IMG/VR virus record: IMGVR_UViG_3300043177_000122
Coordinates: 96,001-160,000 of that record
Source of the DNA: a virus
Taxonomy: Duplodnaviria; Caudoviricetes
DNA length: 64,000 bases
Direction: 5' to 3' (one strand)
Shown here: piece after piece, positions 2,419 through 51,317 of the stretch
Layout: each line of letters opens with the position of its first letter
How positions within the stretch are numbered: position 1 is the stretch's first letter
The notes under the pieces: generated by a model
The model's input: only the letters and a program-made list of their open reading frames with translations
Databases searched by the model: none
What the model was told of the DNA's origin: nothing
Translations under genes and position numbers: made by a program

Positions 2419-4098
2419 ATGAAATTTAGCAAAGTAATAGGTAAAATAGATCCAAAATTAGTATCTCAAGCAGAAGATAAGCTGTCTAAGGTATTTTTGG
2501 AATTAGCTGTTAGATATAACAATGAGCACGTATCATCCGGTATGGGCGGGGATCCATTAATCTTTAGCCTAATGTATCCGGTGGAACATGTTTGTACTTT
2601 GAATATTCCTACTGCAGCTACTGATGGTAAGAGATATTATTGGAACCCAAGGTTCATTCTTAAACTCTCACACAGAGGATTGAGAATTGTTTGCGCCCAT
2701 GAGGCATGGCATGCTATCTATATGCATCCGTCTCGTAGAGGCTCTAGAAATCCTGAGCTATGGAATATTGCTGTTGACTATATTGTTAATGGTACAGCAA
2801 TGGAAGATTTTAAAGCTCGCAAGAAAGATGCATCAGTAGAATTTACCAAGAATCTTGGCCGATACATGCCGTTTGATACTTTCTGTCAGTTTGTAAAAAA
2901 TCCATTTGCTAAGATTCCTGGCTTTGAAGATATTAGTCCTGGTATTGAAGACCCGAATGGAAATAACCCGTCTTGTAATCTTCCTGCTCCACAGGAAGAC
3001 CGCGAGTTAACTGTTCAAGAACGTAAAGAACTAGAGAAGCGTGAAAAGGGTGTTAGATTTTATTATGCCGATCCTAACCTCGATGAGGATATGAAGAAGC
3101 CTGAAAAAATCTATGATATTCTTTATGCTCTTTTACCAAAATGTTCCAAATGTGGTCGTTTAGGAGTTTATCATAAGCCCAATCAAAAGAAGGGGCAAAA
3201 AGGGCAGCAAGGGCAACAAAAGGGACAGGGCCAAGGCCAACAACCAAACCAGAATGGTCAGCCTGGACATGGTGAACACGATCATGGTGATGGACAAGCC
3301 TGTGACTGTCCAGACCATCAGGGTCAAGGGCAAGGTCAACCAAATCAGACTCAAGGACAAGGTAACGGGCCTTGCGATGAATGTGGTGGCGGCATTGATA
3401 TTTTTGGTTTAGGTGGCACCGTAGATGATCATATGGACTCCGAGGAGTCTGAGGAAAAGCTGGCCAAGCGAATTTCTGAAGCCATGGAAGCGGCAAAGAA
3501 AATGGCAGGCTATGTCCCCGCAGCCCTAGAGGAGGAACTTGGTAAATTGACTGCGCCCAGAATAACTTGGCAAGATATTATTCGCACTCGCCTCCTCAAA
3601 GCTCGTGCTGGTAGTGGGCGTAATGATTGGACTAGATTTAGAACTCGCCCAATGTTTAGTGGACTTATGGTTCCTAAGAGAAAAAATTACTATGCTCACT
3701 TTGGGTGCTTGTTAGATACTTCCGGATCTATGAGTAAAGACGATATGGCTTTCGGACTATCTCAGCTTCAATCATTGGACGAGCGCTCTGAAGGCACTAT
3801 TGTACCAGCCGACGCAACTATCTATTGGGACGAAGCAACTAAGATTAAGAAAGCTGTTGCTGAAGAAATCACTAAGGTTAAAGTCGTTGGTCGAGGCGGA
3901 ACTAAGTATGCTGAATTCTTTACTGATTATGAAAAAAATATTGGTCATTGTGATTTCTTAATTGTAATTACTGATGGTTTCTTATTAGATACTGACATAG
4001 CAGAAATGAAACATCCTGGTATCGACGTTATTTGGTTGATTACCAGCGGTAGTGTTTTTAATCCACCATTTGGTCGTGCTTTTGATTTACGTGCATAA
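2419..4098 (+). CDS. VWA-domain / putative metallopeptidase protein (DUF2201-like), MoxR partner
   Basis: HEAWH (HExxH), Q/G-rich linker, MIDAS DTSGS...GGT...ITDG; directly follows the MoxR gene. Confidence 0.85.
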   Translation: MKFSKVIGKIDPKLVSQAEDKLSKVFLELAVRYNNEHVSSGMGGDPLIFSLMYPVEHVCTLNIPTAATDGKRYYWNPRFILKLSHRGLRIVCAHEAWHAIYMHPSRRGSRNPELWNIAVDYIVNGTAMEDFKARKKDASVEFTKNLGRYMPFDTFCQFVKNPFAKIPGFEDISPGIEDPNGNNPSCNLPAPQEDRELTVQERKELEKREKGVRFYYADPNLDEDMKKPEKIYDILYALLPKCSKCGRLGVYHKPNQKKGQKGQQGQQKGQGQGQQPNQNGQPGHGEHDHGDGQACDCPDHQGQGQGQPNQTQGQGNGPCDECGGGIDIFGLGGTVDDHMDSEESEEKLAKRISEAMEAAKKMAGYVPAALEEELGKLTAPRITWQDIIRTRLLKARAGSGRNDWTRFRTRPMFSGLMVPKRKNYYAHFGCLLDTSGSMSKDDMAFGLSQLQSLDERSEGTIVPADATIYWDEATKIKKAVAEEITKVKVVGRGGTKYAEFFTDYEKNIGHCDFLIVITDGFLLDTDIAEMKHPGIDVIWLITSGSVFNPPFGRAFDLRA

Positions 4099-9462: not shown

Positions 9463-10598
9463 TGCCAAATATCGCAATCCTTGGAGCAATGTGGGGAGAC
9501 GAGGGTAAAGGACACATTACCCATCGTCTTTCCCGTGGCTATGACTGGGTTATTCGTTTCAACGGTGGGGCCAATGCTGGTCACACCATCTACCGTGATG
9601 GAGTAAAGTTTGTTCATAACCTTCTGCCATCAGTAGACTTTAGGTATTCTAATGTCAAGGCATACTTGGGCTCAGGTATGGTTATTGATTTAGAAAAGCT
9701 TAGAGATGAGGTAGTAGAAGCTACTAAAACATATCCTGGGGTTGGATTAAGAATATTTGTCGACAATGATGCTTTTATTGTTGAAGCCAAACACAAAGAA
9801 GATAAAATATCTAATGGTCATATTGGCTCAACCAACAGGGGCATTGGGCCGGCTTACAAAGATAAAATCTCACGCTCAGGGAAAAGAGTTGGTGATTTGA
9901 TTTTTGGTGATGATGGTTTGGTAAATGAATACTATTCTATCATGAATGAGTTAATGGGTTTGGGCGTTACTTTTACAACTGTTTTGCAAATGGAAAAGCA
10001 TTTCCAGGTGAGTAAGCTTTTGTTTGAAGGTGCCCAGGGTGTACTCCTTGATATTAACCATGGCATATATCCTTATGTTAGTTGTAGTGATGCCACTATT
10101 GGAGGAATTATTGCCTCAGGATTTGCTTTTGCTAAATTAGATAAAGTTTATGGTGTAGCTAAGTGTTATACTACTAAGGTTGGTGAAGGTCCATTTCCTA
10201 CTGAAATTCATGGAGAATCGGCCAACGACTTGAGAAAAATAGGTAACGAGTTTGGCGCAACTACTGGCCGCCCGAGACGTGTTGGTTGGTTAGATTTACC
10301 GGCACTGCAATATGCTGTCAAGAAAGGTGGAATTACACATCTTATTCTTACTAAGTTTGATATTCTAAATGGCTTATCACAAGTTCCAATTTGTCTAAGT
10401 TATGAGTATCCTATTACCCGTGGTTATGATTTCTTTGATGCTCGCCCACAAATTACAACAATGCCTGGTTGGTCCGACGCAAAACAACCAAATCAACTTG
10501 AAACTTTCATCAAGTTGATTGAGTCTGTCGTTAATGTTCCGGTTGAATACATTTCTTGCGGCACTGACGAGTCAGATATAATAGATTGGGCGGCCTGA
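9462..10598 (+). CDS. purA: Adenylosuccinate synthetase
   Basis: WGDEGKG, RFNGGANAGHT, EGAQG, TTGRPRRVGWLD. Confidence 0.93.
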   Translation: MPNIAILGAMWGDEGKGHITHRLSRGYDWVIRFNGGANAGHTIYRDGVKFVHNLLPSVDFRYSNVKAYLGSGMVIDLEKLRDEVVEATKTYPGVGLRIFVDNDAFIVEAKHKEDKISNGHIGSTNRGIGPAYKDKISRSGKRVGDLIFGDDGLVNEYYSIMNELMGLGVTFTTVLQMEKHFQVSKLLFEGAQGVLLDINHGIYPYVSCSDATIGGIIASGFAFAKLDKVYGVAKCYTTKVGEGPFPTEIHGESANDLRKIGNEFGATTGRPRRVGWLDLPALQYAVKKGGITHLILTKFDILNGLSQVPICLSYEYPITRGYDFFDARPQITTMPGWSDAKQPNQLETFIKLIESVVNVPVEYISCGTDESDIIDWAA

Positions 10599-44294: not shown

Positions 44295-44368
44295 GCTGGC
44301 TTAGTATAATGGTATTATTCCGCTCTTGTAATGCGGAGAACCGAGTTCGATTCTCGGCGCCAGCTCCA
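44295..44368 (+). tRNA. tRNA-Thr(UGU)
   Basis: GCTGGC/GCCAGC acceptor, loop CTTGTAA, TTCGATT T-loop, U73, CCA. Confidence 0.88.
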
Positions 44369-44384
44369 AATATTAGAGTAATAA

Positions 44385-44459
44385 GCCCACGTAGTATAAC
44401 GGTTATTACCCGTCTTTGGTAAAGACGAAAATTGAGTTCGACTCTCAACTTGGGCTCCA
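44385..44459 (+). tRNA. tRNA-Thr(GGU)
   Basis: CGTCT/AGACG stem, loop TTGGTAA, U73, CCA. Confidence 0.88.
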
Positions 44460-44462
44460 TAA

Positions 44463-44537
44463 GCTGTAGTAGTACAATGGTACTGCACTTCCTTGGTACG
44501 GAAGAGACTACAGGTTCGATTCCCGTCTACAGCTCCA
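44463..44537 (+). tRNA. tRNA-Thr(GGU)
   Basis: GCTGTAG/CTACAGC acceptor, CTTCC/GGAAG stem, loop TTGGTAC, U73, CCA. Confidence 0.88.
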
Positions 44538-44538
44538 A

Positions 44539-44649
44539 GCTTTTATCTAATGCTAGTAAGACTAGCACCGGCAGAACCCCCGGTAACAGACCTGACAGTG
44601 GCAGTCGAATTAACGATAGATGGTTGAAGGATGTTTGATAAAAGTCACC
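44539..44649 (+). ncRNA. Unidentified structured RNA inside the tRNA array
   Basis: 9-bp closing stem GCTTTTATC/GATAAAAGT enclosing hairpins TGCTAGT/ACTAGCA, CCGG/CCGG and TGAC/GTCG. Confidence 0.5.
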
Positions 44650-44650
44650 T

Positions 44651-44724
44651 GCTGATATCGTATAGTGGAATTACGCTGCCCTCGTAACGCAGACACATGA
44701 GTTCGATTCTCATTATCAGCTCCA
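44651..44724 (+). tRNA. tRNA-Thr(CGU)
   Basis: GCTGATA/TATCAGC acceptor, loop CTCGTAA, U73, CCA. Confidence 0.88.
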
Positions 44725-45227: not shown

Positions 45228-45578
45228 GGGGATGACATAGATTCGACGTGGTTTCGAATTATCGAAATGATGCAAACAGAGGATGATTGCCCCTCCAAAA
45301 GTAATCAACGTATAAATGCAAACGATAATGCATTTGCAATGGCCGCCTGAGGGCACCATTCGTTCCTAGATAAGACTGCTTGAGTAATCAATGGAACGCC
45401 AACCCACAAAGCTGGTTGATGAATATGGCTACGATGTTCAACAACAAGATTAACAGTAGATAGCTAGCCGGAGCGAATTCTTGCAGCGTTGTTGATAACG
45501 CCAATATCAACTAAGTTTGTGAATGAGTTTTGATAAGGGCATATCGCGGACTCGGCTGCAATGCCGACATCTCCACCA
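45228..45578 (+). ncRNA. ssrA: tmRNA, tag (A)ANDNAFAMAA*
   Basis: GGGGATG/CATCTCC-ACCA acceptor with G3.U70, ATTCGAC near the 5' end, tag ORF 45318-45350. Confidence 0.92.
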
Positions 45579-45621
45579 TTTTAAACTGCACATCTCCACA
45601 TGCGCCGATATATAGTTGTGT

Positions 45622-46171
45622 ATGGAAAAGAAAATCATACTAAACTGCGCTCATTGTGGAGAATCATTTGAAAAAGAGGCTCGTGAGCATCGCCGACAAT
45701 TAAAAGAAGGAAAAGATGTTTTCTACTGCTCTCTTTCTTGCGTATGTAAAGAGCGAAATAAAAACAACCCTCCTAAAGGTAATGTAAAAAAATCTTCAAG
45801 CAGATAACCGAAGAGATGAGTACACTCAGTTTAGATGGTTTGTTAATCGTGGTAATTACAGAGGTAAGAGGAAGAGAAAATACGGATGCGATCTAACTGT
45901 AGAGTTTCTTAAAGAATTGTGGGATCAGCAAAAGGGCGTTTGCCCATTTACTGGATGGCAATTGATTCTACCACAAGATTCTTCTTATGCTTGGGATGAA
46001 AAGAACCCAGCTAATGCTTCTCTGGACAGAATAGATAATTCTAAGGGCTATATGCAGGGCAATGTTAGATTCATTTCAGTTATGGCCAATTTAGCAAGAC
46101 AAACATTTACAGACGAACAGGTTAGAAACTTTTGCAAAGCCGTGGTAACAAATGAAATGGCCACTTCGTGA
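45622..46171 (+). mobile_element. HNH-type endonuclease split by an A7 indel (45786-45792)
   Basis: CAHC...YCSLSC, then LWDQQKGVCPFTG...ASLDRIDNSKGYMQGNV. Confidence 0.75.
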
Positions 46172-46634
46172 TAAAACGCCCGCAATTCCTGAAGAAAGAG
46201 CTGTGGGCGATTTTGCTTTTAGGCGCTCCTTCTATTATCATCCCGGAGTAGACGTTTATTGCGGATTTGGGCAAGAAATACAGGCGATTGAAGAAGGTGA
46301 AGTTGTTCACATGGAAAACTTTACTGGGCCTAATGCTAATCCTCCTAGTCCATGGTGGCTAGAAACCTGGAGTATTCTTATTGAAGGAGCTTCAGGCGTT
46401 TTAGGATATTGTGAAATTAAACCATTTCCACATATTAAAATTGGAGTCAAGGTTAAAGCGGGCGAACTAATCGCTACTGTTATTCCTGTTCTTAAAAAAG
46501 ATAAAGGTAATGGTACGACCATGCTTCACTTTGAACACTACGAAACTGGAACTAGACACCATGTAACGTGGGAATTAGACACCATCAAACCCGAAGAATT
46601 AAAAAACTCTCGTTATTTGCTAGAAAAAAAATAA
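46152..46634 (+). CDS. M23-family peptidase-like protein
   Basis: HPGVD (HxxxD) and MLHFE motifs. Confidence 0.7.
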   Translation: MKWPLRDKTPAIPEERAVGDFAFRRSFYYHPGVDVYCGFGQEIQAIEEGEVVHMENFTGPNANPPSPWWLETWSILIEGASGVLGYCEIKPFPHIKIGVKVKAGELIATVIPVLKKDKGNGTTMLHFEHYETGTRHHVTWELDTIKPEELKNSRYLLEKK

Positions 46635-46663
46635 TCAACCAATAATTGGATATATACATCGTT

Positions 46664-47260
46664 ATGAGCTATCTATAGAACCATCTAATTAAGCAAATGA
46701 AAGAGTGTCCACAAACGGATACTCAATCTGTGTATGAACACGGTGTCTCTGTAAAAGAGCACATTTTTGAATTGATTTCATTTTTAAAAACAGGACAAGT
46801 GCCTGAAGGTTGGAGATTACCTGACTGGATGCATATGTATCGAGAGCAGATTCTAGCCTCGCTTCTTCTAGAGGATATCATCAAAGCCTACGCAGTCTTC
46901 CATGATTGTGGTAAACCTTATTGTCTAATAATAGATGATAAGGGCAGAAGACATTTTCCTGACCATCCAGAGATATCACACAACGTTTGGCTTGCTGTTA
47001 GCAATAACAAAACGATTGCTAAGTTAATTCTTATGGATATGAAAATTCATACTATGAAGGCAGCAGATGTTGAAGAATTCTGTCAGCATCAAGAAGCTAT
47101 CACTCTCCTCATTGCAGGATTAGCTGAAGTACATAGTAATGCAAAGATGTTTGGCGGCATTGATTCTGAATCCTTCAAAATCAAATGGAGTCAAATTAAC
47201 AAACGTGGCAAAGCAATTTGTCGTAAACTATTTGGAGAACATCATGTGTCTATAGGTTAA
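46664..47260 (+). CDS. HD-domain phosphohydrolase with in-frame TAG at codon 5 (46676-46678); downstream in-frame ATG at 46697
   Basis: EHG...FHDCGK...FPDH; ATG 46664 lies 7 nt after the GATATATA motif. Confidence 0.75.
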
Positions 47261-47594
47261 AGAAGGCGATAAGCTTTATGTTATTACTCGTGCAGATTTG
47301 GAACCGGGTTATCAAGCAGTGCAGAGTATGCATGCATTGAGACAATTTACGGCAGAGCATCCTGAGGTCGATAAGGCATGGTTTGAGCAATCAAACTATC
47401 TTGGACTTCTTTCGGTGCAGAATGAACAAGAACTCCTGCAGTTGTTAGAACAAGCAAACAACCAAGGGATTCAAGCTTCAGCTTTCCGAGAACCCGATAT
47501 TGATAATCAAATGACAGCCATTGCGTTATCACCTGGCCCTAAGTCTAAAAAGCTTTGTAGCCGTTTACCACTAGCATTAAGAGGTAAGCCATGA
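47244..47594 (+). CDS. Pth2-like peptidyl-tRNA hydrolase with in-frame TAG at codon 4 (47253-47255)
   Basis: GGAGA SD, ATG TGT CTA TAG GTT..., then KLYVITRADL...QAVQSMHA...REPD...TAIAL. Confidence 0.78.
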
Positions 47595-47842
47595 GCAAAT
47601 GGATTGATAAAGAGCGTGGGCCCGAATGTTTCTGTGGCATGCCAACTGGAGTATATATTAGTGAAGATGGTAAGGCATGGTTAATGTGTATCTTTCATGA
47701 ATATGAAGCGGGAGCAATGTTCCCGCTCCCTAGAGATGGAAGACCTGATGCCTGGCCTGATATTCCTCGTGAAGAGATAAATGAGCTAATGAAACGAGGA
47801 GCAGAAGAAGATGAACAAGAACCTATTTCAGAAGATGGATAA
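47591..47842 (+). CDS. Hypothetical protein
   Basis: PECFCG...CIFH; coupled ORF. Confidence 0.6.
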   Translation: MSKWIDKERGPECFCGMPTGVYISEDGKAWLMCIFHEYEAGAMFPLPRDGRPDAWPDIPREEINELMKRGAEEDEQEPISEDG

Positions 47843-47996
47843 AAAAGAATACGATTACTGCTCATGTTCGGGCCATTGCTGTGACAAACCAGAGCGATTT
47901 TGCCCTGTTCACGTTTGCGAAGCAGAAAATTTCTGTGAAGAATGCTTTGTTTCAGAATGTGCTAATTGCCACAAATCATGTGCGTGTGACCTATGA
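47835..47996 (+). CDS. Cys-rich metallothionein-like small protein
   Basis: 12 Cys and 3 His in 53 aa. Confidence 0.55.
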   Translation: MDKKEYDYCSCSGHCCDKPERFCPVHVCEAENFCEECFVSECANCHKSCACDL

Positions 47997-48346
47997 AAAA
48001 GACTAGTATAGCATCTTTGCAAGAACGTTTAACTGATTGGTTGCCATGGGATGAAGCTATGTATCAGGTTGGAGCTACTCTTGGTTTCTGGCCTGAGTTT
48101 GGCGCACCTCATGATAACGATCCGTGGCATGGCGTTAAAGACGTTATGCACACTAGAAAACATGAACCGCTAGGTGCTATACTGGAATGGTTTCTCAAAG
48201 ATTTGGTTGAAGTGGGTTGTCTTGAATCAAAAACAGTCGAACTTGAATTCGAATTTTCAAGTGGGAAAAAGACCACGATTCCAATCGCGCATTATCGTTG
48301 GAATGTAAAATATAAAGGACCGGCAGATTTAATATCAATGTTATAA
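47993..48346 (+). CDS. Hypothetical protein
   Basis: 117-aa coupled ORF. Confidence 0.6.
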   Translation: MKKTSIASLQERLTDWLPWDEAMYQVGATLGFWPEFGAPHDNDPWHGVKDVMHTRKHEPLGAILEWFLKDLVEVGCLESKTVELEFEFSSGKKTTIPIAHYRWNVKYKGPADLISML

Positions 48347-48347
48347 T
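48339..48347 (+). promoter_or_regulatory. Extended -10 promoter for the CUA-tRNA pair
   Basis: TG-T-TATAAT, 5 nt before the first tRNA. Confidence 0.6.
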
Positions 48348-48352
48348 GTAAT

Positions 48353-48426
48353 CCGCTCTTGGTATAGTGGCTGTGCCGTCGACTCTAAATCGACAGAGCC
48401 GTGTTCAAATCACGGAGAGCGGGCCA
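48353..48426 (+). tRNA. Amber suppressor tRNA(CUA), C1-G72, G73
   Basis: CCGCTCT/AGAGCGG acceptor, perfect GTCGA/TCGAC stem with loop CTCTAAA, TTCAAAT T-loop, CCA. Confidence 0.88.
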
Positions 48427-48436
48427 AATAATATAT

Positions 48437-48508
48437 GCGCCGTTAGCTCAGTGGTAGAGCGGGAGCCTCTAAAACTCACGGTCGAGGGTTCAAATCCCTC
48501 ACGGCGCA
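48437..48508 (+). tRNA. Amber suppressor tRNA(CUA), G1-C72, A73, CCA not encoded
   Basis: GCGCCGT/ACGGCGC acceptor, canonical D-arm, loop CTCTAAA on a weak stem (GAG/CTC plus two mismatches). Confidence 0.78.
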
Positions 48509-48537
48509 CAAACTACTATTATGATATATAATCTAGC

Positions 48538-48720
48538 ATGAACAAATTTATGACTAGATTAGAAATGCAAACACGTGTTAGAACAATTCGAGAAGAATTG
48601 GAAAATAGGAATAAAACTGGTATGGCCAAAATGGCAACCGACGATGGTGCCCCTATATCTACTGAAGACTTGCAAAATGAAATGTTTTCATTGATTTACA
48701 GATTGAGTAAATTTGAATAA
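48538..48720 (+). CDS. Hypothetical protein
   Basis: 60 aa; GATATATA 7 nt before ATG. Confidence 0.6.
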   Translation: MNKFMTRLEMQTRVRTIREELENRNKTGMAKMATDDGAPISTEDLQNEMFSLIYRLSKFE

Positions 48721-48727
48721 GTAGGCT

Positions 48728-49240
48728 TCAAATTAGTGATTTCTTTCGCAATCGTTTACGAAGTGCTGGATCACTACATCCGAGTTTTTTTGAAACTGCA
48801 AATATGCTATTTTCAGCAATCATTTTTATGAGTGATTGATCATCTGGCCAATTAAATCTATCTTGGGTTGTTCGACAATGATTGCATAGCCCAGATACCG
48901 ACACTCTACTTCTATAATTTCCACATTTTTTGCAAGTATAATTTCCCGTTCGTTTTCTATTTATCGCATTACCACCAGCATAGTTTTCCGTTTGAGAGTG
49001 ACAGTTAGGGCAAAGAAATCTTAAATTCTCTATTCTATGATCTTTGTTATCTCCATTAATGTGATCAACTTGTAATGTAAGAATGTTTCCATTCCACTCT
49101 GGCCCTAATCCACAGATTGCGCATTTATATGGCAACAGATTGTACTTCAAGATTTTAGTTTTAAGATGTGATCTAGTAAAAGTAGAATTTTTTACTAATG
49201 CTTCCTCAATTGGGATTTCGTGGTCGCCTTTTTTATACAT
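48728..49240 (-). mobile_element. HNH homing endonuclease with C-terminal HTH
   Basis: LQVDHINGD...NLRFLCPNCH. Confidence 0.85.
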
Positions 49241-49288
49241 GTAACCTCACTTAATCTAACCTTTGTATGCATGTCAATGCATAGTTTT

Positions 49289-49780
49289 ATGAAAGAACTT
49301 CGTTTGGAAATAGAACTTGTACCACAAACCTCATGGATGAATAATGTCCGTTCTATATTAACTGCTGCACAATGGGATATTCTAAGAAAGCAAGTATCTG
49401 CTGCTGCTTGGGATACTTGCCAAATTTGTGGTGGAGTAGGCCCAGAACACCCAGTTGAGTGTCATGAGATTTGGGAATATAACGATAAGACCAAGATTCA
49501 AAAATTAGCCGGAATGATTGCATTATGCCCCAATTGTCATTTGGTCAAACATTTTGGTTTTGCTAGAGTTACAGATAGAGAGGAAATTGCTTTCAATCAT
49601 TTTATGAAAGTCAATAGTCTTAAAAAAATTCAAGCAGAAGCCGAGATTGTTAAAGCATTTGATATTTGGAGAAAACGTAGTGTGATTGATTGGGAACTTG
49701 ATCTATCTGGACTAGAGCGGTACGGAATAGATATTTCTAAAATTCGGAAGCCGCTAATGAAACCTTCGGAGACTGAGTAA
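49289..49780 (+). CDS. HNH-fold phage protein
   Basis: CQICG...ECHEIW...LCPNCH.VKH; start uncertain (49271-49289). Confidence 0.65.
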   Translation: MKELRLEIELVPQTSWMNNVRSILTAAQWDILRKQVSAAAWDTCQICGGVGPEHPVECHEIWEYNDKTKIQKLAGMIALCPNCHLVKHFGFARVTDREEIAFNHFMKVNSLKKIQAEAEIVKAFDIWRKRSVIDWELDLSGLERYGIDISKIRKPLMKPSETE

Positions 49781-49832
49781 GAATAACACTTGATAAGATA
49801 CTATGATATACTACATTACTAGTGGTGGTAAA

Positions 49833-50222
49833 ATGCCTTCTAATACAGACGAATCTAAAAGATATTGGCTTTTAGAGGATCCTCGTAAAACCGGACTTAA
49901 GAATGGGTTACGACAATTAACAATTGAACAGTTACAAAGAGTTATCGATTATCAAGGTGAAATGGTTCTGGACAGCTATAATTATGAGGGTGGAAAATTT
50001 TGTCCTTTAACGATAGCGGTTGAACTAGATAAAACAATAATTAACCCAACACATGAAAAAGTTTTCGATGCCTTGACAAGTATGGGTTATAAAGTTTACA
50101 ATACTCGTGGGATTCCAGGCGAGTTTTACACAAATAATAGGCTGGAAGATTTGCTGGAAGCAGCAAAAGAAGTGTTACAGGAGAAAACAAATCAGAATGC
50201 AAACTGTAAATCAATCAAATAA
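49833..50222 (+). CDS. Hypothetical protein
   Basis: Coupled ORF. Confidence 0.6.
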   Translation: MPSNTDESKRYWLLEDPRKTGLKNGLRQLTIEQLQRVIDYQGEMVLDSYNYEGGKFCPLTIAVELDKTIINPTHEKVFDALTSMGYKVYNTRGIPGEFYTNNRLEDLLEAAKEVLQEKTNQNANCKSIK

Positions 50223-50748
50223 TCAGCAGCGTGAATACCGTACTCGTATCAATAAATTCATTCGTGTTCCTCAAATTCGTGTAGTGCTTGCCGATGGTTC
50301 CAATGCCGGCATTATGAATACTTATGAGGCTTTGAAAATGGCACAAGACCAAGGACTTGATTTGGTGGAGATTAGTCCTAAGGCACAACCACCAGTCTGT
50401 AAAATTATGGACTATGGTAAATTTAAGTACGAAGAGAAGAAAAAGCTTCAAGCTGCTAAAAAGAATCAACAGATTCAAGAACTTAAGGAGCTAACTTTTC
50501 GACCCAACACTGATGAGAATGACCTAAAACATAAGCTTTCTCAAGCTAAAGAGTTCTTAGCTGATGGTGACAGGGTTAAATTTGCAGTACGTTTCCGTGG
50601 TCGTGAAATTGTCCATCAGGATATTGGTAAAGAGAAGTTAACTTGGATTCTTCAGGAATTGAATGGTTTAGTATCTCCTAATCCGCAAATTTCTTTAGAA
50701 GGAAAAATTATGTGGATGATTGTTTCTCCTACTAAACAAAAGTCATAA
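50197..50748 (+). CDS. infC: Translation initiation factor IF-3 (possible AUC start at 50191)
   Basis: RIN..IR...R, DLVEISP.A.PPVCKIMDYGKFKYE, FL..GD.VK...FRGRE. Confidence 0.93.
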   Translation: MQTVNQSNNQQREYRTRINKFIRVPQIRVVLADGSNAGIMNTYEALKMAQDQGLDLVEISPKAQPPVCKIMDYGKFKYEEKKKLQAAKKNQQIQELKELTFRPNTDENDLKHKLSQAKEFLADGDRVKFAVRFRGREIVHQDIGKEKLTWILQELNGLVSPNPQISLEGKIMWMIVSPTKQKS

Positions 50749-50758
50749 TAGTAGGAAT

Positions 50759-50835
50759 GTCCCCGTAGTCTAAAGGATAGGCACCAGTTTCCTAAACTGG
50801 CATTAATGTTGGTTCGAGTCCAATCGGGGATACCA
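50759..50835 (+). tRNA. tRNA-Arg(CCU)
   Basis: CCAGT/ACTGG stem, loop TTCCTAA, A20, CCA. Confidence 0.88.
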
Positions 50836-50852
50836 CTGATATATTTGTTGGC

Positions 50853-51317
50853 ATGAGAAACAAGAACTTTTCTTCCGAAGGCCAACGTAATTCCGACAAT
50901 CTAATATCTTTATTGAGACATCGCCTACATGATAATGGTAAGGTTAAATCTAATGATGCTCATGGCAATATTATTTATGTCGATTGTGATGTGTACAGTA
51001 AATCAATGCTAGAAGCATTCATTGATCTTGCGGTTTCCGAATTCAATGCCACTCCTGAGTTTACTGATTTTACATTAGAAAATAGTAGATTTGTGGACTG
51101 CTTTGCTGAAGTGATCATAGAGGGCGCCACTCTATATGCCTTATCTTCTAAGGCTTTGATTGAGCGCGGTCGTGAGTTTCAGATTGCAGATGACGGCGTT
51201 AATTTTCAGCCGCCTGCCATATCAGATATGCTTAATACTCAATTTAGTACGCTATTAGCACATCATTGGGATAAGTTGAAGCACATCAAGGCTAGCATTA
51301 AGTCCTTCAACAAGTAA
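50853..51317 (+). CDS. Hypothetical protein (possibly virion neck/adaptor-like)
   Basis: 154-aa helical ORF; GATATATT 7 nt before ATG; function is a guess. Confidence 0.6.
   Translation: MRNKNFSSEGQRNSDNLISLLRHRLHDNGKVKSNDAHGNIIYVDCDVYSKSMLEAFIDLAVSEFNATPEFTDFTLENSRFVDCFAEVIIEGATLYALSSKALIERGREFQIADDGVNFQPPAISDMLNTQFSTLLAHHWDKLKHIKASIKSFNK

Follow-up and report, generated by a model that had tools for sequence, protein, structure and literature searches.

In recoded phages that read TAG as Gln (genetic code 15; Lak phages, crAss-like phages and others), in-frame stop codons have been proposed to make gene expression conditional on a suppressor tRNA (bioRxiv 10.1101/2021.08.26.457843). Jumbo phages using the standard code also often carry amber suppressor tRNAs, without known purpose: the XacN1 authors reported that read-through of 18 amber stops revealed nothing and identified no suppressor target (PMC5852040), and the RsoM2USA paper names no target for its amber suppressor tRNA (PMC8504454). 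A candidate target is described here, in a 64,000-nucleotide (nt) stretch of DNA (the window) comprising bases 96001-160000 of a single freshwater phage contig of 358,993 bp and 38% G+C (IMG/VR record IMGVR_UViG_3300043177_000122). It consists of two overlapping genes, for a predicted HD-fold phosphohydrolase (HD) and a protein with the fold of peptidyl-tRNA hydrolase 2 (Pth2), each with an in-frame TAG within its first five codons, followed by two genes for tRNAs with a CUA anticodon.

Early recoding sites are also known in genes of the translation apparatus itself: prfB (RF2) is autoregulated by an in-frame UGA at codon 26, and infC (IF3) by its AUU start codon. Minigenes of the lambda bar type, open reading frames (ORFs) of just two to three codons, cause peptidyl-tRNA drop-off and are toxic when Pth is limiting. 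The HD/Pth2 locus has features in common with each of these systems, which are taken up again at the end.

Two Overlapping Genes with Early In-Frame Stops

The HD gene (46664-47260, + strand) begins ATG (46664) AGC TAT CTA TAG AAC CAT CTA ATT AAG CAA ATG (46697), the second ATG being codon 12. The amber is codon 5 (46676-46678, next base A); if it is read through, the gene has 198 codons and ends with TAA at 47258-47260. The Pth2 gene (47244-47594, + strand) overlaps the 3′ end of HD by 17 nt and begins ATG (47244) TGT CTA TAG GTT AAA GAA GGC GAT AAG CTT TAT GTT ATT ACT CGT GCA GAT TTG (47298), with the amber at codon 4 (47253-47255, next base G); read through, it has 116 codons and ends with TGA at 47592-47594. 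A Shine-Dalgarno (SD) sequence, GGAGA (47234-47238, + strand), lies 5 nt ahead of the Pth2 ATG.

Both 5′ ends had been described in this form in an earlier, sequence-only reading of the window, including the GGAGA-N5-ATG arrangement, and direct reading bears this out. It likewise confirms that no ATG, GTG, or TTG occurs from the Pth2 TAG to TTG 47298. A start at this TTG would, as proposed at the time, delete the first strand of the protein: β1 comprises residues 10-16 in the AlphaFold model.

Conservation of the Stops in Related Phages

Homologs were collected in two surveys, one centered on HD (64 unique loci with a readable N-terminus) and one on Pth2 (69 unique loci), which share some contigs. 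Since the phages are related rather than independently sampled, the p-values given here and below overstate the number of independent events. The in-frame stop is kept in more than 100 related phage loci, across 35-95% identity; the expectation that a TAG near codon 4-5 would prove to be conserved in homologous HD-Pth2 pairs thus holds down to about 35%. Among the 64 HD loci (individual loci are numbered from L001), 42 have an early TAG, 3 an early TGA, and 5 a mid-gene TAG only; 6 more are Pth2-HD fusions with TAG at the head, in 2 the TAG follows a longer leader, and another 2 carry a TAG in Pth2 only. An early or mid-gene in-frame stop of some kind is found in 58 of the 64. Early in-frame stops occur in 42 of the 64 HD loci, vs. 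15 of the 1037 remaining long ORFs at these loci (1.4%; Fisher p = 7e-47).

In relatives the TAG falls at codons 2-8 of HD and codons 3-4 of Pth2, with varying flanking codons; Pth2 starts among the first 16 related viral loci include ATG TGT CTA/CTT TAG, ATG AGT TTA TAG, and ATG TCG TAG. Surveyed stops lie mostly at codons 3-5, and the next base is A in 58, G in 17, C in 7, and T in none (n = 82). For amber suppression in E. coli, a purine after the stop favors suppression over release. In the window and in relatives, SD or promoter signals are spaced for the ATG upstream of the stop.

Two local explanations for TAG conservation were considered and rejected. One is constraint by the overlapping HD reading frame: in L004 and L009 the HD stop is upstream of the Pth2 ATG, leaving the genes 14-43 nt apart, and both still have ATG-x-x-TAG and a separate SD sequence. 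The other is the CTATAG palindrome as a signal, since relatives have TTATAG, TCGTAG, TGGTAG, or CCCTAG instead.

Several observations, taken together, indicate that the in-frame stop must be translated. No canonical start codon lies between the stop and β1 of Pth2 in 34 of 34 stop-bearing genes of a first survey and 32 of 35 of a second (again partly overlapping). In HD, the residues after the stop are conserved (I9 and M12 invariant, L8 nearly so, with synonymous codon changes, over 12 homologs and the first relatives), and in a structural model of the read-through product (predicted local distance difference test score, pLDDT, 92.6) they are part of a confidently predicted helix, residues 3-14, that spans the TAG position. 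Homologs without the stop (L013, L016) begin two to four codons ahead of the same L8/I9/M12 motif. Finally, some stops are in mid-gene: the HD TAG is codon 47 in two cultured phages, fHe-Yen9-04 (Yersinia) and BF (Serratia), and other loci have it at position 46, 53, or 116. In the deposited annotation of fHe-Yen9-04, the single HD gene is split into g408 and g409.

These two phages and XacN1, RsoM2USA, and pT24 are the cultured carriers found. In the latter three, the stop is just upstream of the annotated start: ATG AAG TAG for XacN1 ORF364 (an HD-Pth2 fusion), ATG AAA TCG TAG for RsoM2USA gp91 (an HD homolog), and ATG AAA TAG for pT24 BPT24_235 (a Pth2-HD fusion). HD-Pth2 fusions are also found in L060, L062, and L070, and the Pth2-HD order in L043, L047-L050, L064, and L085; in fusion proteins, the stop is placed at the N-terminus of the fusion. 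Because other phages fuse the two, in either order, HD and Pth2 probably work as a unit.

Some database proteins appear to run through the stop. Many of those beginning “MCLQVKEGDKLY...” derive from short contigs, and in the same family the calls from long contigs are truncated; the Q in such full-length Pth2 proteins (“MCLQ...”) corresponds to TAG wherever the DNA can be read. Gene callers seem to pick a TAG = Q (code 15) model when a short contig holds little besides the HD/Pth2 pair. A megablast search of 46100-50900 against deposited phages gave no match.

Stop Type and Suppressor tRNAs

Suppressor tRNAs were searched for in the 10-kb flanks of each locus, so “no suppressor” means none nearby. 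Nearly all close relatives carry one or two tRNA(CUA) genes within a few kb. Over the 69 Pth2 loci, 30 have both a TAG and a tRNA(CUA) gene within 10 kb, 29 have neither, 5 have the TAG without the tRNA, and 5 the tRNA without the TAG (odds ratio 35, p = 2e-9), in agreement with the predicted co-occurrence of TAG with CUA tRNAs. Two of the five with TAG and no tRNA(CUA) have a tRNA(UUA), which also reads UAG by wobble.

In three loci both the stop and the tRNA are different. The HD gene of L069 begins ATG ACA TGG TCG TGA, and there are two tRNA(UCA) genes; that of L055 begins ATG TCA TGA, with one tRNA(UCA) gene; and L163 has a mid-gene TGA in Pth2, where tRNA(UCA) is again encoded twice. All three lack a CUA tRNA. 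On the HD set, the TGA/UCA pairing has a Fisher p of 0.007. These three cases and the two fusion orders point to repeated independent evolution. The selected feature would be a stop needing a phage suppressor, and not a particular amino acid, as the CUA tRNAs have unrelated bodies with the same loop.

Other tRNAs and stops were seen near Pth2 genes. A tRNA(UUA) of the ochre type adjoins Pth2 in L146, L152, L153, and L123; two of these Pth2 genes have an early TAG, while those of L152 and L153 have no in-frame stop but end in TAG. In Mycobacterium phage Myrna (L099), a TAG directly precedes the annotated GTG start of the Pth2 gene gp84 (2977-3336), and gene 86 (3466-3537), 130 nt downstream and annotated as tRNA-Ser, is a CUA tRNA by ARAGORN. 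Myrna was not counted as a further case, because the GTG has a GGAGG at a suitable distance and could be used without any read-through.

The two tRNA(CUA) genes of the window, called by both ARAGORN and Rfam, are 0.76 kb from the Pth2 stop codon and, as first noted, about 1.1 kb from its TAG. Type A (48353-48426, + strand; Rfam 47.2 bits, gathering score 29) has C1-G72, G73, an encoded CCA, and a 3-bp D stem; blastn finds no related sequence among phages. Type B (48437-48509, + strand; 65.7 bits) has a Lys-like body, 84% identical to phage tRNA-Lys genes, with A73, no encoded CCA, and a C31-A39 mismatch closing the anticodon stem. Both have a cloverleaf scoring above the Rfam gathering score and a 7-nt anticodon loop, CU-CUA-AA. 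The same loop is found in 16 relatives, with CUA tRNAs of at least four unrelated bodies.

The tRNA genes and the HD gene are preceded by similar promoter-like motifs. A -10-like element, GTTATAAT (48340-48347, + strand), is 5 nt ahead of the first suppressor tRNA. Upstream of HD, AATAA-TTG-GATATATA (46641-46656, + strand) ends 7 nt before the ATG, and is kept in this place in L001, L002, L004, L005, and L014. The looser form AATAA-N3/4-G(A/T)TATA has 14 sites in the genome, of which 9 are upstream of tRNA genes, at a distance of 7-16 nt in 8 cases; so loosely defined, the motif is not enriched overall relative to shuffled sequences (14 vs. 9.7), and only its placement before tRNA genes is telling. 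Given this spacing, transcripts may start almost at the mature tRNA 5′ end.

The exact 8-mer GATATATA has 7 occurrences on the + strand of the window. Its position 7 nt before the HD ATG is as originally described; the further claim that it marks ten gene starts in the window does not stand, as only 5 occurrences (28953, 45607, 46649, 48523, and 51319, all + strand) have an ATG exactly 7 nt on, with 9 genome-wide. The 8-mer at this distance from an ATG resembles a -10 element serving leaderless transcripts, and the HD mRNA itself probably has little or no leader. Since the same type of promoter precedes HD and phage tRNA genes, the HD operon and the tRNAs are probably expressed together.

Predicted Proteins

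The Pth2 protein matches the Pfam PTH2 family (PF01981) with 33.8 bits (cut-off 23), residues 10-102 aligning with profile positions 2-104. This match starts at the K of KLYVITR, in the strand that a start at TTG would remove. The model (pLDDT 94.7) has Pth2 enzymes for all of its top 14 PDB matches (2zv3, 3erj, 1q7s, 1wn2, and 1xty among them; template modeling, or TM, scores 0.70-0.76, E = 4e-7). Equivalog cut-offs for archaeal Pth2 are not reached (NF003314, 26 bits vs. 126; TIGR00283, 21.5 vs. 82); as its scores are so far below these NCBIfam values, the phage protein belongs to a divergent phage clade of the Pth2 fold, for which the same substrate is not guaranteed.

The HD protein has no Pfam family at E ≤ 0.01. 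Its sole family match is phrog_14850, of unknown function; PHROG 14850 joins HD and Pth2. An H...HD...D metal-binding motif is present, with H80-D81, H97, H101, D125, H129, and H157 invariant in 12 homologs and H26 nearly so. The nearest structural match of the model is the Aquifex CC-adding enzyme O67911, in its HD region (TM 0.65, E = 9e-4), and class II tRNA nucleotidyltransferase structures (3WFO-3WFS; E = 4.5e-3 for 3wfq) are among the nearest. Next come the GlnD HD domains, and 1xx7 and YfbR are matched as well. Taken as a group, the best matches have probabilities of 0.9-1.0 but weak E-values.

The HD domain of the bacterial CCA-adding enzyme is a 2′,3′-cyclic phosphodiesterase and phosphatase acting on tRNA 3′ ends. 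By analogy, the phage HD protein may act likewise. As modeled, both products would then be tRNA-3′-end enzymes, one, of the Pth2 fold, hydrolyzing the ester bond in peptidyl-tRNA or N-blocked aminoacyl-tRNA, the other with an HD fold nearest the HD region of CCA-adding enzymes.

Use of TAG in the Rest of the Genome

Under the standard code, 461 non-overlapping ORFs give a coding fraction of 91.7% of the genome, and treating TAG as a sense codon makes no change. The genome thus does not show the many genes with in-frame TAG and the low code-11 density that mark code 15; the two tRNA(CUA) genes do provide the phage-encoded suppressor that is also expected of code-15 phages. A genome-wide search for ATG followed by one to five codons, a stop, and at least 80 open codons found 14 cases with TAG, 17 with TAA, and 19 with TGA, i.e., no excess of TAG, and the early-TAG hits other than HD and Pth2 look like chance. 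Among TAGs with 50 open codons on each side, again genome-wide, none has a coding signal on both sides. Genome-wide recoding is therefore excluded for this phage, which has no other credible in-frame TAG. With a coding density of this order under the standard code, the suggestion of a gene-specific gate rather than whole-genome recoding gains support.

TAG is rare as a terminator, ending 30 of the 461 ORFs. Of the 110 ORFs of at least 300 amino acids, 74 end in TAA, 36 in TGA, and none in TAG; the 30 ORFs ending in TAG are all shorter. Active suppressors may have led to TAG being avoided, or some of the short ORFs may simply be spurious. There is no sign of backup stops after TAG-terminated genes, the median read-through extension being 9 for TAG vs. 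8 for both TAA and TGA. No gene with an RF-1 domain (RF1, RF2, ArfB) was found in the phage genome, which is 83% complete according to CheckV.

A Possible Suppressor-Gated Operon

The interpretation favored here, and considered likely, is a suppressor-tRNA-gated operon: HD and Pth2 would be made only when the phage suppressor outcompetes RF1. Ribosomes would start at AUG 46664 for HD and AUG 47244 for Pth2, and reach a UAG after four and three sense codons, respectively. If host RF1 wins, a tetra- or tripeptide would be released, and nothing more; if a charged phage tRNA(CUA) wins, the 198-amino-acid HD enzyme and the 116-amino-acid Pth2 enzyme would result. How much of each is made would thus depend on the balance between functional suppressor tRNA and RF1. 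The sequence-only reading had already proposed a dependence of full-length Pth2 and N-terminally complete HD on the phage CUA tRNAs; conservation of the TAG, its co-occurrence with CUA tRNAs, and the switch to TGA with UCA all argue for it. Which residue is inserted is probably of little consequence, given that the stops fall where the N-terminus or a loop varies and that different phages use different tRNA bodies.

As to purpose, the preferred idea is that such a gate would tie enzymes for clearing or limiting the tRNA by-products of suppression and translation to the time at which the phage tRNAs are active. Read-through of natural TAG stops would be expected to produce stalled ribosomes and stray peptidyl-tRNA, and a transfer-messenger RNA (tmRNA) gene adjoins the locus. 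An alternative purpose is negative feedback on acylated tRNA, analogous to RF2 or IF3 autoregulation. A link to the peptidyl-tRNA drop-off caused by minigenes, and a choice between a timing and a feedback role, both raised in the sequence-only reading, are speculative. A more speculative version, which seems rather doubtful, is a self-referential homeostat or sensor: HD-Pth2 would act on the suppressor tRNA itself or on acylated by-products, so that its own UAGs gauge charged suppressor against RF1 and set or limit read-through. If this were true, it would be a tRNA-based counterpart of RF2 autoregulation, and could sense host attack on tRNAs or RF1.

Several points weigh against a suppressor gate. 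CUA tRNA genes are found near HD/Pth2 genes without an in-frame stop in L038, L080, L086 (Acinetobacter phage ME3), L129, L133, L135/L138, and L144. Conversely, about 20 TAG-bearing HD loci have no suppressor within 10 kb; theirs may lie elsewhere, as in the terminal repeats of XacN1. In L033, the HD gene (about 9930-10560) has two TAGs, one N-terminal and one at position 46, and the only suppressor among the 27 tRNAs within 10 kb is a tRNA(UCA). HD always keeps a Met six to seven codons past the stop, and re-initiation there could give a slightly truncated HD with no need of suppression. Lastly, a strong suppressor would also read through the ends of the 30 TAG-terminated phage ORFs and of host genes terminated likewise, which should be costly.

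The invariant Met, seven codons past the stop in HD, is also an argument for leader-peptide control without read-through, in which the first three or four codons are a mini-ORF, HD re-initiates at ATG 46697 and Pth2 at a non-canonical codon, and the CUA tRNAs serve something else. ATT or ATC, a possible weak start, often directly follows the Pth2 stop (24 of 35), and the phage encodes its own IF3. IF3 is the factor that polices start codons. However, the codons after the two stops in the window are AAC and GTT, which are not start codons, and 66 of 69 Pth2 genes, from the two partly overlapping surveys, have no ATG, GTG, or TTG before β1. The stretch between stop and Met in HD is conserved as protein and modeled as helix, and mid-gene stops, at codons 46, 47, 53, and 116 of HD and about codon 66 of Pth2, cannot be leaders. 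Nor does this explanation predict the pairing of TAG with CUA and TGA with UCA, and it is judged improbable. So, to a slightly greater degree, is incipient whole-genome recoding, with TAG freed as a stop and drifting neutrally into genes, of which HD and Pth2 are merely the first. The rarity of TAG terminators, particularly their absence from the 110 longest ORFs, and the presence of suppressor tRNAs are as it would predict, and stop loss has been proposed as a precursor of phage recoding (bioRxiv 10.1101/2021.08.26.457843). But neutral capture would scatter TAGs over many genes, and the stops are instead found in the same two genes, at the same N-terminal place, in phages of Gammaproteobacteria and Bacteroidota hosts; no other gene of this genome shows an in-frame TAG, and independent TGA/UCA versions exist.

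Two nonsense codons in adjacent genes of a metagenome assembly also raise the question of assembly artifacts or inactivating mutations, and in deposited sequences the homologs are indeed annotated as truncated or split genes. Neither sense codons nor errors were seen at the TAG sites: contigs of two freshwater sequencing runs (13x and 27x) have no differences from the window over 46400-48600, although these runs are possibly the source samples, making this weaker support than conservation across genomes. The stop is present in more than 100 loci, including finished genomes of cultured phages, and there is purifying selection on both sides of it, so that broken genes or sequence error can practically be dismissed. 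An equally far-fetched explanation is a programmed +1 frameshift at the HD stop (GGT TAA A, 47255-47261), which would yield an HD-Pth2 fusion bypassing the Pth2 TAG. In its favor, Pth2 is read in the +1 frame relative to HD, whose stop comes 2 nt after the Pth2 TAG, and fusions in this order exist in XacN1-like phages. There is no slippery sequence, though, and Gly-tRNA on GGU would re-pair poorly on GUU; the spacing of the two genes in L004 and L009 also speaks against it, and it leaves the HD TAG unexplained.

Neighboring Genes

The HD/Pth2 pair and its suppressor tRNAs are part of a larger island of translation genes. The tmRNA gene (45228-45578, + strand) matches Rfam RF00023 with 104 bits, and was not reported by ARAGORN in the window. 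A tmRNA is found at the same place in L002-L004; the tags are ANDNAFAMAA, ANDFAFAEAA, and ANDNAAPMALAA. Downstream is the IF3 gene (50107-50748, + strand; IF3_N and IF3_C domains). In the longest ORF the N-domain does not begin until residue 48, so translation probably starts further downstream, perhaps at a non-canonical codon like that of bacterial infC.

The genome has 57 tRNA genes in all, for all amino acids but Trp, arranged in blocks by amino acid; four for tRNA-Thr are at 44295-44724 of the window. HNH endonuclease ORFs are inserted in the island at 45616-46171 (+ strand) and 48728-49240 (- strand). The former is split into 45616-45807 and 45917-46171, perhaps through breakage or a frameshift in a single gene.

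Significance and Comparison with Known Systems

For the amber suppressor tRNAs of standard-code jumbo phages, a conserved candidate target can now be named, the HD/Pth2 pair with its early stop. The lock changes with the key, TAG occurring with CUA and TGA with UCA, and the question can be tested in at least five cultured phages. Some annotations should be corrected: XacN1 ORF364, RsoM2USA gp91, and pT24 BPT24_235 have been called too short, and g408 and g409 of fHe-Yen9-04 are one gene. Single-gene control exerted in nature by a dedicated suppressor tRNA would also be of interest for genetic-code expansion. A full-text search of the literature found no description of a two-gene HD/Pth2 suppressor lock; the work on recoded phages concerns genome-scale recoding.

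XacN1 and RsoM2USA are described phages of the same kind, being standard-code jumbo phages with a tRNA(CUA) and homologs of the HD gene. The papers describing them considered read-through of 3′ stops only, and the N-terminal stops of HD and Pth2 were not noticed. The lambda bar minigenes have the same ATG, two to four codons, and stop, which here stand at the head of a gene for a peptidyl-tRNA hydrolase; unlike the HD and Pth2 5′ ends, they have no in-frame protein continuation and no cognate suppressor.

Like prfB and infC, the HD/Pth2 locus has an early recoding site in a translation-apparatus gene that would report the state of translation. In prfB, ribosomes get past the stop by shifting frame (+1), and RF2 is itself a competitor there, whereas the bypass proposed here is tRNA suppression.

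Code-15 phages share the basic decoding step, in which a phage tRNA(CUA) reads in-frame UAG in a host with the standard code. In those phages, tens to hundreds of genes, mostly late and lysis genes, have many TAGs each, and coding density under code 11 collapses. In the phage studied here, with no release factor gene found in the 83% of the genome available, just two genes for putative tRNA enzymes are affected, with one stop each, almost always at codons 2-8, and with suppressor tRNAs of heterogeneous bodies. Such an arrangement may be a stepping stone to full TAG reassignment in phages.

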